Source: an uncultured Gammaproteobacteria bacterium (GTDB taxonomy: Bacteria > Patescibacteriota > Patescibacteriia > UBA1558 > GWA2-36-10). Taken from it: a stretch of 64,000 nucleotides of DNA. This document shows, one piece after another, positions 1,376 to 63,859 of this stretch. The position numbers were made by a program, and so were the translations under genes. Location of the stretch: the NCBI GenBank assembly GCA_964633905.1, contig CAZWIT010000002.1, positions 63,209-127,208 on the forward strand. The letters run 5' to 3'. The notes under the pieces were generated by a model. The model was not told where the DNA came from and made no database searches. It saw only the letters and a list, made by a program, of their open reading frames with translations. Positions within the stretch are counted from its first letter, which is position 1; the number at the start of each line of letters is the position of its first letter.

Positions 1376-2899
1376 ATGTCACACGATTATTTAGTAAAAA
1401 GTTTAGAAAAAAAATTAGCCGACTTGGATTTAAGTAGTGCCATTGAAACTGTTGGCGAAGTTATTGAAGTAGGCGATGGTATTGCTCGCGTCTCTGGCTT
1501 GTCAGATTGTATGTCCAGTGAAATGTTGGAATTCACCAGCAAGGATGGCACTAAAGTTTTAGGTTTAGCTCTAAATCTAGAAGAAAATGTTATTGGTGCT
1601 ATTGTTTTGGGTGATTATCAGCTTTTGCAAGCTGGCGATAAGGTAAAAGGAACTAAAAGAGTATTAGAAGTGCCAGTGGGCGAAGCGGTCATTGGTAGAG
1701 TTGTTGATCCTTTAGGTAATCCTTTAGATGGCAAGGGCCCAATTAAAACTAAAAATTTTTATCCAGTAGAAAAAATTGCACCAGGTGTTATTACTCGTCA
1801 ATCAGTAACTCAGCCTTTGCAAACTGGTATTAAAGTAATTGATGCTATTATTCCGATTGGAAAAGGTCAACGTGAACTTATCATTGGCGATAGACAGACT
1901 GGTAAAACAGCTATTGCTATTGATGCTATTATCAATCAAAAAGGTAAAGATGTAATTTGTATTTATGTAGCTATTGGGCAAAAAGAATCTAGAATTGCTA
2001 AGATTGTAGCTAAGCTTGAAGAAACTGGTGCTATGGAATACACTACGGTAGTTTTGGCTGGCGTTTCAGCTCCAGCAGCTTCATCCTACATTGCTCCTTA
2101 TGCAGGGGTAGCTATGGGTGAATATTTTATGGATCAAGGTAAAGATGTGCTAGTAGTTTATGATGATTTGTCAAAACACGCTGTGGCTTACAGACAGATC
2201 TCTTTATTATTACGTCGGCCACCAGGACGTGAAGCTTATCCAGGCGATGTCTTTTATTTACATTCTCGTTTGTTAGAAAGGGCAGCAAAACTTAGCCCAG
2301 AATTTGGCGGCGGATCACTTACTGCTTTGCCGATTATTGAAACTCAAGCTGGTGATATTTCTGCCTATATTCCAACTAATGTTATCTCTATTACTGATGG
2401 ACAAATATTTTTAGAAACAGATTTGTTTTATAAAGGTATCAGGCCAGCTTTAAATTCTGGCTTATCGGTTTCCCGTGTTGGTTCAGCTGCTCAGATTAAA
2501 GCAATGAAAAAAGTAGCTGGCCGTTTAAAGCTTGATTTAGCTCAATTTAGAGAATTGGAAGCTTTTGCCCAATTTGGTTCAGATTTAGACGAGGCCACCA
2601 AGCAACAATTAAATCGGGGAGCGCGAGTGGTAGAAATTTTAAAGCAAAGCCAGTATTCACCATTATCTCAAGGCAAACAAGTGGCCATACTTTATGCAGT
2701 AATTAATGGTTATTTAGATACAGTGCCAGTTGAGAATATTGCTGACTTGGAGCAGAAATTATACCAGAATTTAGAATTACAAAATTCAGATTTACTCAAA
2801 AAAATTGAAACAGAAGGACAGCTAGATGAAGCAATGGAAGATAAATTAAAACAAATTATTAGTGATTTAGTAGAAGCTAATCAAGTAAGCAAGAAATAG
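1376..2899 (+). CDS. atpA: ATP synthase F1 subunit alpha
   Basis: Walker A GDRQTGKT, strong family-wide conservation. Confidence 0.97.
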
Positions 2900-2905
2900 A
2901 AAGTT

Positions 2906-5252
<2,347 letters not shown>

Positions 5253-57240: not shown

Positions 57241-57269
57241 TTGACAATATTGTTTATTTATAGTATTGT
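57241..57269 (+). promoter_or_regulatory. sigma70-like promoter TTGACA-17-TATTGT
   Basis: Read directly, ~60 nt upstream of the small GC-rich gene. Confidence 0.45.
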
Positions 57270-57327
57270 TCAAATCCGTTCTTTTTTCCCCTGTCAATAT
57301 AAACATTGTCTCAAGGAGGAGGGTTAG

Positions 57328-57525
57328 ATGAAGGCTTTGCTAAAAAGGGCCGGCATTTTGCTGGCTGCGAAGCGCGAAGAAATCGGGCGTAAGCGTCGTA
57401 TCAGAGAATTGCGGCAAGAGAGTGAACTTATTTTCCAGGAAGCTATGGGTAGAGTTATCTGCCAAAAGCCTAATGGCGGTACGCTTGCCAAAGAAGCGGC
57501 TGACGACGAAGTCTATTCTGTCTAG
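57328..57525 (+). CDS. small basic protein (65 aa) in a GC-rich (~48%) island, strong SD AAGGAGGAG
   Basis: ORF with canonical RBS spacing, own promoter and own terminator; composition atypical for this genome. Confidence 0.55.
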   Translation: MKALLKRAGILLAAKREEIGRKRRIRELRQESELIFQEAMGRVICQKPNGGTLAKEAADDEVYSV

Positions 57526-57532
57526 CTAATAT

Positions 57533-57571
57533 TACCCAATCCTGCTACTAGCAGGTGAGGGTATTTTTTTA
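57533..57571 (+). terminator. Rho-independent terminator (TACCC aat CCTGC tacta GCAGG tga GGGTA + T7)
   Basis: Hairpin plus TTTTTTT. Confidence 0.75.
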
Positions 57572-57587: not shown

Positions 57588-57616
57588 TTGACAAGTTTTA
57601 ATATTTTTGTTAGAGT
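57588..57616 (+). promoter_or_regulatory. sigma70-like promoter TTGACA-17-TAGAGT driving the GC-rich RNA element
   Basis: Read directly. Confidence 0.45.
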
Positions 57617-57639
57617 GCTTTTTGTCTATATTTTCGTAC

Positions 57640-57905
57640 CTCCAATATTAATGGAAAAACGGAGACAAGCGCCCTGTCATGTTGGTTATGAAAACGTATT
57701 GGCCACCGCGGGGCCTGCGTTTTTGGTCGGTGTGCATCACCTGGCCTAACCCAATTGGGTAGTTCTCCGTTTAGAGGAGATTGAGATAGCGCGCCTGCAA
57801 AACAGGTGAGCCTCGCGTCCGATGGGAACTACGCCCACGATAGTCGCGAGCCGCAGTCTCGCTCCTCGAGGGGTTCGTGCTCGTCCGCGGACCCCTTTTT
57901 TATTT
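57640..57905 (+). ncRNA. GC-rich (~58%) highly structured RNA element (~270 nt) ending in an intrinsic terminator, upstream of rpsL; class unknown (ncRNA or attenuating leader)
   Basis: Multiple helices (CGGAGA...TCTCCG long-range; GCGAG ccgcagt CTCGC; ACCCAATTGGGT; terminator GGGGTTCG...CGCGGACCCC + T6). Confidence 0.45.
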
Positions 57906-61146: not shown

Positions 61147-61199
61147 TATAACAATTTTGGGTTAACAAAAAACCCCATTTATGTAATAGAGTTTTTTGT

Positions 61200-61760
61200 T
61201 CATCTGAAGCCACTAGATCTTAATAGCTAGAGAGCTATAACCTAGTGGACTCGGATAAAGGGGAGAAACTGTTGGCTGGCGGCGGGTCGCGTTGAACGCG
61301 ACCCGCCGCACTGATGCGTTATTCGGATGCTTCTCCCTTTGACTATTTTTACCTGTAGTCAGCAGGATTCCGTTGCCCCGGAATGACGGGAGTTGTTTGT
61401 GAGGATTACCGGATATTATGCGGCCTCCGGAGAGTCGCGGGAACTACCCGACTACTGGGCCTATGGTTCGAACAGTCCAAACATCACGATCCTTTCTGCT
61501 GCACCCTCTTGCAGCAAATGGGTCCTGAAGTACAGGAGTGGTTGCGACCTTATATGGTTTCCGGGTATTATCGGCCCCCGGTGGATCTGGTCGCACGCAG
61601 TTCTTGGGCGGGCGCTGCGCGGTCGTATTTAACCGCGAGCAAAATTGTGCCGATGACTGCGTTTTTTAGACCACTGGCCTAGAGCAACAGTCGAATCACT
61701 ACAATCTCCCTTCTTTTCGGTTTAGCGGAGCGCATGAGCGCTCCCGTTTTGTTTTTTTAC
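61200..61760 (+). ncRNA. GC-rich (~57%) noncoding island inserted between fusA and tuf; candidate large structured ncRNA of unknown class, ending in intrinsic terminator (GGAGCGC atga GCGCTCC + T-run)
   Basis: 13-bp GC stem GCGGCGGGTCGCG ttgaa CGCGACCCGCCGC; GGGGAGAAAC...GCTTCTCCC helix; CCACTAG...CTAGTGG helix; no convincing ORF. Confidence 0.4.
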
Positions 61761-62094
61761 CAAACTGTATCACAGGTTTTGTGGATGACAGTCTGGCAAC
61801 TGCGGGTGTTTAGCCATCTTAGAGCATTCAACCCGCCTTTAAAGGCTAGTGTTTTACAAACACTGTAATGGAGGTAAGGATATAAGCTGATGCTTATATC
61901 AGGTGGTAAACTCGAAATTATCAAGCCGTAAAGCCTGATAAAATCAGGGTTGTAGGACCTGTTCTTAGTCCTCCAATACAGTATTTGTAAAAAAGCCTTT
62001 ATTTATTGGTTTTTTAAGAGCAATAGAGCATTATATCATATAATTAATATTTTGTCAATAGTATTGTAGCCATAAATAAATTTAAAATATTAAT

Positions 62095-62145: not shown

Positions 62146-62490
62146 ATGTTAAATGTTCAAAACCTGGAAGCAGTACTAAAATTAGTCGCCCAAACTAAGG
62201 ATCGAGTGATTATTTTATCAGAAAATTATGATCCATTGGTGATTATGAATTTAGAAAACTACAGGGATTTATTAGCTAAAAATACTGTAAAAAAGGGCAA
62301 TGGTCAGCAAGTAGTTTTAGACAATATTAATAAGGACATTGCTTTATTGCATGCCAGTGAAAATGATGTTCCAGATTTAGCCGACTATAATTTAGATCAG
62401 TTTAAAGTAGAGGAAGATAATGCTGCTAGTGAAAATAAACCAGTAGATACCGAAGAAGAAGAAAAATATTATTTAGAACCAGTTGATTAA
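62146..62490 (+). CDS. Phd/YefM-like antitoxin-fold protein with acidic C-terminal tail; orphan (no toxin gene adjacent)
   Basis: DRVIILSENYDPLVIMNLENYRDLLA resembles the Phd/YefM N-terminal strand-helix; tuf follows directly. Confidence 0.45.
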   Translation: MLNVQNLEAVLKLVAQTKDRVIILSENYDPLVIMNLENYRDLLAKNTVKKGNGQQVVLDNINKDIALLHASENDVPDLADYNLDQFKVEEDNAASENKPVDTEEEEKYYLEPVD

Positions 62491-62671: not shown

Positions 62672-63859
62672 ATGGCAGAAGTATTTAAAAGAGAAAAAAC
62701 TCATGTCAACGTTGGTACTATTGGCCACGTTGATCATGGCAAAACCACTTTAACAGCCGCTATCTTAAAAGTGATTAGCGCAACTGGTGGTGTGGCTCAA
62801 CAAAAAAATGTTGACCAAATTGACGCTGCTCCTGAAGAGCGCGAACGCGGTATTACTATTGCTACCGCTCACGTGGAATATGAAACTGAAAAACGTCACT
62901 ATGCCCACGTTGACTGTCCAGGTCACGCTGACTATGTCAAAAATATGATTACTGGTGCCGCCCAGATGGATGGTGCCGTTTTGGTAGTTTCAGCTGCCGA
63001 TGGTCCCATGCCTCAAACTCGTGAGCATATTTTGCTTGCCCGTCAGGTTGGTGTGCCTTTCATCGTAGTCTATTTAAATAAAATGGACCAAGTTGATGAT
63101 CCTGAGCTAGTCGATTTAGTAGAAGAAGAAATCAGAGATTTATTGAAAAAATATGAATTCCCTGGTGATAAAACTCCTATTATTCGTGGTTCAGCCTTAA
63201 AGGCTTTGGAAGACCCTGCTGGCGAAGCTGGTAAATCAATTACTGAATTACTAAAAGCTTTGGATGATTATATTCCAGATCCAGTTCGTGATACTGAGCA
63301 TCCTTTCTTATTACCAATTGAAGACATTTTCTCAATTGAAGGTCGTGGTACAGTAGTTACTGGTCGTATTGAACGTGGTTTAATCAAATTAAACGAAGAA
63401 GTAGAAATCGTTGGTTTGCATGAAACCAAAAAGACCGTGGTTACTGGTATTGAAATGTTTAACAAGCAATTAGAAGAAGGTCGTGCTGGTGATAATGCCG
63501 GTTTGCTTTTACGCGGTACCAAAAAAGATGAAGTTGAACGTGGTCAGGTTTTAGCTAAACCTGGTAGTATTACACCTCATACTGACTTTGAAGCTAAAGT
63601 TTATATTTTAAGCAAAGAAGAAGGTGGTCGTCATACTCCATTTTTCAAAGGCTATAAACCACAGTTTTACATCCGTACTACTGACGTTACTGGTGAAGTT
63701 ATTTTACCAGAAGGTACTGAAATGGTAATGCCTGGTGACACTATTAATTTAACTATTAAATTAATTCATCCAGTCGCTTTAGAAGAAAAATCACGTTTTG
63801 CTATCCGCGAAGGTGGTCATACTGTTGGCGCTGGTACTGTTACCAAAATCATTAAATAA
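62672..63859 (+). CDS. tuf: elongation factor Tu
   Basis: [18 protein letters not shown] motifs. Confidence 0.99.

Follow-up and report, generated by a model that had tools for sequence, protein, structure and literature searches.

A lineage-restricted small-protein gene with an extended Shine–Dalgarno sequence upstream of rpsL in a Patescibacteria bacterium

The ORF65 locus and its Shine–Dalgarno sequence

The window analysed here is a 64,000 nucleotide (nt) stretch of contig CAZWIT010000002.1, and the subject of the analysis is a small open reading frame (ORF) within it, ORF65, which lies between the gene for an M50-family protease and the ribosomal protein gene rpsL. ORF65 carries the only extended Shine–Dalgarno (SD) sequence in an otherwise essentially SD-less neighbourhood, and comparison with related loci indicates that it is a protein-coding gene under purifying selection. 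A sequence-only reading of nt 57241-57571 had proposed a small gene that stands alone, complete with promoter, SD and terminator. All of these features were recovered, and four further, diverged loci have kept the promoter, the SD, the reading frame and its length, and the terminator. The signals of the gene, and of the unit that follows it, are given below.

57241-57269, plus strand: sigma-70-type promoter P1, TTGACA-17-TATTGT (10 of 12 positions match the consensus)
57284-57292, plus strand: pyrimidine tract UUUUCCCCU in the 5' untranslated region (UTR), the anti-SD arm, paired with 57314-57323 in the minimum free energy (MFE) and consensus folds
57313-57321, plus strand: extended SD AAGGAGGAG, 6 nt before the ATG, invariant in five of five homologous loci
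57322-57329, plus strand: 5' strand of a long-range helix, comprising the spacer between SD and start codon together with the A and U of the AUG; pairs with 57520-57527 (probability 0.88-1.0)
57328-57525, plus strand: ORF65, a gene coding for a protein of 65 amino acids (aa) (MKALLKRAG...DDEVYSV); the sole frame open in five of five loci, with a ratio of nonsynonymous to synonymous substitution rates (dN/dS) of 0.19-0.35
57520-57527, plus strand: 3' strand of the long-range helix, GUCUAGCU, comprising the last codon, the UAG stop and 2 nt; invariant in five of five loci
57533-57571, plus strand: intrinsic terminator, with a hairpin at 57533-57563 followed by U7 at 57565-57571 (-16.1 kcal/mol)
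57588-57616, plus strand: promoter P2 of the downstream small RNA (sRNA) unit, TTGACA-17-TAGAGT with TG upstream; conserved in the locus alignments
57622-57900, plus strand: structured sRNA of about 280 nt and 54% GC (guanine plus cytosine), a candidate linked partner of ORF65, with a terminator (57868-57897) at its end

Promoter P1 consists of a -35 box (TTGACA, 57241-57246) and a -10 box (TATTGT, 57264-57269) separated by a 17-nt spacer, and the -35 box is kept, together with a TAnnnT -10 box, in all four related loci (L001, L007, L013 and L010). Transcription would start near nt 57276 and give ORF65 its own, probably monocistronic messenger RNA (mRNA) of about 300 nt. The 65-aa product is exactly as previously quoted. 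The SD had been placed 7 nt before the ATG at nt 57328; the sequence itself is as described, and the spacer is 6 nt (GGTTAG). The terminator had been called perfect, and it does combine a strong hairpin with a run of seven U residues, but the stem is interrupted by a 3x3 internal loop, which is why it was missed by a simple terminator scan. It is kept in all five loci, with compensatory changes in L013 and L010.

The GC content of ORF65 is indeed far above background, at 49.5% compared with 35.4% for the whole window. At third codon positions (GC3) the value is 0.49, compared with 0.245 ± 0.033 in the 50 other genes (z = 7.4), a level reached by none of 1606 in-frame control windows of 65 codons.

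The strength of the SD is anomalous for an SD-poor genome, a point that was absent from the earlier reading. The 16S ribosomal RNA (rRNA) of the organism lies outside the window. When scored against a canonical anti-SD, which the host may or may not carry, the SD of ORF65 has an energy of -12.6 kcal/mol, the strongest of the 51 genes (median -1.0), and only two of them are at -7 kcal/mol or below. The sole other standout is tuf at nt 62672, with an AAGGAG sequence (-8.7 kcal/mol). At 48 of the 51 start codons the SD is of 4 nt or fewer, and rpsL, rpsG and fusA have none. A similar contrast between one strong SD and its surroundings is found in L010 and in three more distant relatives, L019, L020 and L022.

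Coding status, protein family and messenger RNA fold

Protein searches with ORF65 covered 5.8 billion clustered proteins and 1.84 billion representatives, and returned only a very small family, whose proteins are all 64-65 aa in length and 52-94% identical (P0001, which is ORF65 itself, P0004, P0002, P0005, P0006, P0003, P0021 and P0017). The members are encoded at five nucleotide-distinct loci: the window, L001 (equal to L002-L006 and L008), L007, L013, and L010 (equal to L011 and L012). In all 10 locus pairs the Nei–Gojobori dN/dS is 0.19-0.35 in the ORF65 frame and 0.8-1.3 in the two shifted frames. Substitutions between the window and L001 number 7, 5 and 17 at the first, second and third codon positions, an excess at the third, and the +0 frame is the only one that is open across all five loci. 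There are no insertions or deletions (indels) over 198 nt in the five loci, whereas the adjacent sRNA has many. By these comparative measures, ORF65 is a genuine, lineage-restricted protein-coding gene under purifying selection; homologs exist, and its dN/dS is far from the value near 1 that the sequence-only reading had associated with a spurious ORF. It represents a new family of small proteins that was previously undescribed.

No relatives outside the clade were detected in the two protein sets. Searches of phage and plasmid sequences (tblastn) gave no match to ORF65, scans of viral contigs gave either none or two chance matches in coding DNA, and a scan of metagenomes with a protein pattern of ORF65 returned nothing. 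A DNA pattern, CTCAAGGAGGAGRGYTAGATG, gave three chance matches that are unrelated. Scanning of public genomes added only L008, which lies on the contig of L001, and L009, a spurious match of 27 aa. Within the window there are neither paralogs of ORF65 nor repeats flanking it.

No known family was matched significantly in Pfam, NCBIfam, PHROGs, PADLOC, PDB profiles or Foldseek, and the absence of Foldseek matches in PDB to the AlphaFold2 (AF2) model of ORF65 is expected for a single helix. An exhaustive HMMER search returned PASTA-domain proteins (P0018-P0020); these are large proteins that share only a short, repeated QxPNGGT string with ORF65, and were rejected as coincidental matches and not homologs. 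A known RNA in place of the gene was likewise rejected: at the gathering threshold Rfam gave no matches in the whole window and five related loci, and at E values up to 10 only chance-level ones, and ARAGORN found no transfer RNA (tRNA) or transfer-messenger RNA (tmRNA) in the window. An antisense RNA or ORF was also discarded, as there is no antisense promoter inside ORF65 and the minus-strand frames are broken in relatives.

The AF2 model, which was built from a shallow alignment, predicts a single helix for residues 2-43 (block-mean predicted local distance difference test, pLDDT, 83-96) and disorder for residues 44-65. Conserved among the homologs are the basic, amphipathic N-terminal helix and an acidic tail with a hydrophobic end. 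The invariant core consists of I35-F36, A39-M40, R42-V43 and C45-Q46-K47-P48 (consensus IFQxAMxRVxCQKP), followed by N or S at position 49 and an invariant G50, so that the linker after the helix carries a conserved CQKPNGG motif. The protein changes rapidly, at about three times the rate of its neighbours L28 and the M50 protease. The window and L010 share 52% protein identity in ORF65, compared with 84% in the M50 protease and 78% in L28, and between the window and L013, dN is 0.24 for ORF65 and 0.007 for S12. The synonymous rate (dS) of ORF65 is not reduced, being 0.5 compared with 0.3-0.7 in neighbouring genes.

The initiation region of ORF65 is among the most stably folded in the window, with an ensemble energy of -15.0 kcal/mol that ranks second of 51 (median -6.4 kcal/mol). 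In the predicted fold of the full transcript, the SD is free of pairing with a probability of 0.26, and the AUG with one of 0.07. In L010 and L019 the SD is occluded by other upstream pyrimidine tracts. The helix that joins the start and stop regions, 8 bp in length, is kept in five of five loci, and the two substitutions seen in the window produce G-U wobbles. Its 3' strand (nt 57520-57527) is unchanged across the five loci although the adjoining C-terminal codons vary. When synonymous codons were shuffled with the protein and codon set kept, the native mRNA folded better than the shuffled versions in all five loci (z -0.5 to -2.0).

Third-position changes in ORF65, polarised by parsimony, comprise 14 from G or C to A or T (S>W) and 18 in the opposite direction (W>S). 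Decay from a starting GC3 of 0.5 to an equilibrium GC3 of about 0.245 would be expected to give about 75% S>W changes (3:1), from which the observed counts differ (binomial p = 1.2e-4). On this count, the high GC of ORF65 is maintained by selection against a strong AT mutational bias and is not decaying.

The downstream small RNA and the wider M50-to-rpsL slot

The GC-rich RNA element that the sequence-only reading had placed directly downstream (nt 57588-57900, including P2) is real. The sRNA at nt 57622-57900 has an MFE z-score of -3.49, and compensatory changes occur in 18 of the 78 pairs of its consensus fold across five sequences. Indels of 1 nt in the alignment mark it as non-coding, and Rfam contains no family that matches it. 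The synteny that had been suggested as a check holds, since ORF65 and the sRNA are found together in five of five loci. These include L010, where the gene that follows the sRNA is not rpsL but a second M50-like protease. The sRNA therefore travels with ORF65, and its reading as a leader of rpsL was rejected. L010 is the most diverged of the loci with ORF65, and its second protease (nt 2333-3139) is a membrane protein with an HELGH motif and a moderate SD of -8.7 kcal/mol, so that the ORF65-sRNA pair of this locus is flanked on both sides by members of the M50 family.

The gene order around the locus is widely conserved: response regulator, NDK, L28 (rpmB, minus strand), M50 protease, the slot occupied here by ORF65 and the sRNA, then rpsL, rpsG and fusA. 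Among the homologs with names, those nearest to the upstream M50 protease belong to Patescibacteria, Parcubacteria and Komeilibacteria, and by this grouping the organism is one of the Patescibacteria, also termed the candidate phyla radiation (CPR). The related contig CAZHLU010000024.1 (L001/L008), from a metagenome-assembled genome, is titled 'uncultured Gammaproteobacteria bacterium', a label that is probably wrong given the placement of the M50 protein.

The M50 gene gave access to more distant relatives, at identities of 69% (L019), 74% (L020) and 66% (L022). In all three the slot holds, in order, a promoter of the TTGACA-17-TATAAT type (TATAAT or TATATT in the position equivalent to P1), a folded 5' UTR, a strong SD (tCAAGGAGGAG, aCAAGGAGGAa or GGAAGGAG), a GC-rich ORF followed by a terminator, then another promoter with its GC-rich sRNA (about 525 nt in L020), and the rpsL promoter. 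The ORFs, none of which was called in the source gene predictions, are as follows.

L019, 2733-2900: SD-led, GC-rich slot ORF of 55 aa between M50 and rpsL
L020, 928-1110: SD-led, GC-rich slot ORF of 60 aa between M50 and rpsL
L022, 4718-4837: SD-led, GC-rich slot ORF of 39 aa between M50 and rpsL

They share the layout of ORF65: they begin with MK or MR, are rich in Arg and Lys in the N-terminal part, and run through a Pro/Gly linker into an acidic tail, and the hydrophobic tips of ORF65 and the slot ORFs read LWI, FFV, LFI and YSV. The second contigs available for these loci are identical in sequence, and the ORFs are regarded as candidate coding sequences. Since the slot of these relatives holds strong-SD, GC-rich ORFs with a similar charge layout, each followed by an sRNA, the ORF65-sRNA unit looks like a fast-evolving but positionally conserved module. 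The slot appears to differ in L025 and L026.

In L022, a perfect complementarity of 9-10 nt exists between the SD region (GGAAGGAGC, 4709-4717) and the 5' end of the sRNA (GCUCCUUCC, 4953-4961; p ~0.02), which is absent in the other seven loci examined for mRNA-sRNA pairing. The slot also contains homologous lipoprotein-like genes in L019 (3411-4016), L024 (4519-5172) and L028 (~4500-4663), all with a GC3 of 0.7-0.88 and a strong SD, and preceded by a conserved GC-rich leader (..CTCGCCCAGAAAGG..GGGGAT.ACGCATCCCC..). For the L019 gene, the source annotation called the opposite strand.

Two further features were observed towards the right end of the window. A second, larger GC-rich island (nt 61159-61851, 50-54% GC) lies between fusA and the next ORF, ends with a hairpin and U run near nt 61727-61767 and has no Rfam match. 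Its alignment to L001 shows 87% identity and 19 gap openings, which means that the 99-aa ORF inside it (nt 61383-61682) is not coding, and the island is a candidate structured RNA of about 600 nt. Between fusA and tuf there is also an ORF of 114 aa (nt 62146-62490) with a weak Pfam match to Phd/YefM-like antitoxins (E = 2.5e-5, below the curated cutoff), and no adjacent gene stands out as the partner toxin.

Possible functions and comparison with known systems

The explanation favoured here, at a probability of roughly 40%, is that ORF65 encodes a lineage-restricted, translationally gated small nucleic-acid-binding or adaptor protein that is expressed from its own mRNA. Because the initiation region is sequestered in a stable fold, with the pyrimidine tract on the SD and the start region on the stop region, translation would need the exceptionally strong SD and be gated by it. 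At the starts of all other genes, which are AT-rich, unstructured and SD-less, no such SD would be required. With a basic amphipathic helix of 42 residues, a Cys-Gln-Lys-Pro-Asn-Gly-Gly linker and an acidic tail tipped by hydrophobic residues, the product may act as a nucleic-acid-binding or adaptor protein, nucleic-acid binding being suggested by the basic helix of the model. Its likeliest partner would be the co-inherited downstream sRNA, or else its own mRNA or the ribosome.

Several observations weigh against this explanation. Profile and PDB searches gave no homology between ORF65 and any nucleic-acid-binding family, and an anti-SD motif has been detected in only ~48% of Parcubacteria (PMC9297842). 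The slot ORFs of L019, L020 and L022 show no statistical similarity to ORF65 (hhalign probability at most 1.2%) and the sRNAs of the distant loci are not recognisably homologous to that of the window, so the module is defined only by position and architecture. The functional link to the adjacent RNA that had been proposed is circumstantial, as it is borne out by co-occurrence but not by base pairing: across eight loci and three test approaches, complementarity between mRNA and sRNA is not above that of shuffled sequences (mean z -0.2), L022 alone being significant. The folding z-score of the whole ORF65 transcript is modest (-1.88), and the undiminished dS implies that base pairs inside ORF65 are not strongly constrained. 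Taken with the modest scores of the codon shuffles, these two values suggest that what selection favours is the stability or composition of the mRNA as a whole, along with its terminal helices, and not every internal pair.

A first alternative is that the transcript is mainly a regulatory, dual-function RNA, in which the GC-rich fold is the effector, the ORF is secondary or a sensor, and the peptide sequence carries little weight. The dual-function sRNAs SR1/SR1P, SgrS/SgrT and RNAIII/hld encode small proteins and, like the ORF65 mRNA, are independent, structured transcripts of sRNA size with a short conserved ORF. ORF65, in contrast, fills two-thirds of its transcript, and has no homology to any of them. 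The size of about 300 nt, the dedicated promoter and terminator, the maintenance of GC content by selection, and the position in a tandem array of GC-rich sRNA units all agree with such a role. So does the distribution of conservation, since conservation is higher in the UTRs and terminator than in the coding part (promoter and 5' UTR are 90% identical, and the ORF 74%, between the window and L013), and among the slot loci the proteins diverge beyond recognition as the SD-spacer-start motif tCAAGGAGGAG-N4-5-RTG-AAG persists. The low dN/dS and the invariant IFQxAMxRVxCQKP core nevertheless point to selection on the peptide itself, synonymous sites change at a normal rate, the structure z-scores are modest and no target complementarity was identified, which makes a primarily RNA-based function unlikely, although it is the best of the alternatives. 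GC-rich structured non-coding RNAs have also been found in AT-rich genomes by intergenic GC screening. The ORF65 unit resembles them as a GC-rich island that has a promoter and a terminator to itself within an AT-rich genome, and the sRNA at nt 57622-57900 is exactly of this kind, but the ORF65 island is protein-coding under purifying selection, and no Rfam 15 family matches.

Slightly less probable again is that ORF65 is a ribosome-associated factor comparable to the bS21 of Flavobacteriia, which would attach to the 30S platform, govern whether the anti-SD is accessible and be autoregulated. In F. johnsoniae, the only gene whose SD is obvious and extended is rpsU (bS21, 64 aa), and this SD drives autoregulation via ribosomes that lack bS21 (PMC9976891, PMC7797042). 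By analogy, since the ORF65 mRNA alone has an extended SD, ribosomes lacking ORF65 would translate it preferentially, and autoregulation would follow. The parallel with rpsU of Flavobacteriia and Bacteroidia (PMC9976891, PMC7797042, PMC13000453) is close in several respects. Both genes specify basic proteins of about 64-65 aa, both carry nearly the sole very strong SD in an SD-less genome (SD-anti-SD pairing below -13 kcal/mol for the rpsU class and a predicted value of about -12.6 kcal/mol for ORF65), and both are located among translation genes, ORF65 being between rpmB and the rpsL-rpsG-fusA-tuf cluster. In addition, bS21 is frequently absent from Parcubacteria (PMC9297842). Homology to bS21, prompted by the strings KRAGILLAAKRE and QKP, was rejected: Pfam Ribosomal_S21 gave no match at E values up to 10 for seven members of the ORF65 family, a profile search of PDB brought up no S21 chain even with 29 S21 sequences in the database, and hhalign against E. 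coli bS21 gave a probability of 0.2%. The predicted single long helix is unlike bS21, the rapid evolution relative to L28, the M50 protease and S12 is atypical of a ribosomal protein, the distribution is very narrow, and tuf, too, has a moderate SD. ORF65 also differs from rpsU in belonging to the Patescibacteria, with promoters of the sigma-70 type, and in having a GC-rich, folded mRNA. Ribosome association of ORF65 is a candidate property. In a more speculative and somewhat more doubtful form of the analogy, ORF65 and its positional counterparts might be lineage-specific ribosome-associated factors that gate the 16S anti-SD or specialise initiation, with the SD as an autoregulatory handle that arose independently of bS21/rpsU, and the sRNA perhaps a part of the circuit.

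The mRNAs of type I toxins such as those of hok/sok and aapA1/IsoA1 are inhibited by fold-back, with SD occlusion and 5'-3' pairing. ORF65 has in common with them a strongly transcribed small-protein mRNA of about 300 nt, an occluded SD, paired 5' and 3' ends and an adjoining sRNA gene. It could accordingly be proposed that ORF65 is toxic, that its mRNA is kept inert by 5'-3' pairing and SD occlusion, and that the neighbouring sRNA is the antitoxin. The predicted fold does have the features of an inert mRNA (SD sequestration and a helix closing start on stop), the promoter is strong, the protein is small, fast-evolving and narrowly distributed, and the sRNA has its own promoter. The product, however, is not hydrophobic. 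It has no transmembrane or hydrophobic segment, its longest uncharged run is 7 residues (AGILLAA), and its helix is amphipathic and basic. No antisense promoter exists within ORF65. The sRNA follows in tandem on the ORF65 strand and is no more complementary to the mRNA than shuffled sequences are, no antisense or complementary sRNA could be demonstrated, and PADLOC gave no match. A toxin–antitoxin function is for these reasons improbable.

Horizontal acquisition had also been raised in the sequence-only reading. Composition and SD usage do look foreign to this genome, and other GC-rich, SD-led genes occupy the slot in relatives (L019, L024), so that ORF65 might be a recently transferred gene or the remnant of a mobile element with the GC content and SD of its donor. 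This is very improbable. The gene occupies one syntenic position in five loci with a synonymous divergence of 0.5 to above 1, recent transfer is disfavoured by the balanced third-position substitutions, which show no net decay of GC, and no homologs were found in other lineages within the two protein sets, nor in phages, plasmids or viral contigs. Flanking repeats and paralogs are absent from the window, and promoter P1 is of the host type, like P2 and the rpsL promoter. Lastly, a spurious ORF inside a non-coding RNA, to which the GC-richness shared with neighbouring RNAs and a largely open antisense -0 frame might point, is effectively refuted by the frame-specific contrast in dN/dS, the excess of third-position substitutions, the lack of indels compared with the adjacent sRNA and the conservation of the SD at a fixed spacing.

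A large part of the diversity of bacteria belongs to the Patescibacteria (CPR), in which translation relies on a reduced and poorly understood apparatus, with ribosomal proteins missing and, in part of the Parcubacteria, no anti-SD (PMC9297842). If ORF65 proves to be merely a small, lineage-specific regulator, the finding would be of modest, specialist interest, while a role in gating the ribosome would, if true, be of high interest. ORF65 adds a family of small proteins that has been missed by standard annotation, with counterparts in three related genomes that were left uncalled, and the M50-to-rpsL slot emerges as a breeding ground for structured sRNAs and micro-ORFs that are transcribed independently. 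The lone extended SD on a positionally conserved micro-gene provides a testable handle on whether, and when, the ribosomes of these organisms use SD pairing.

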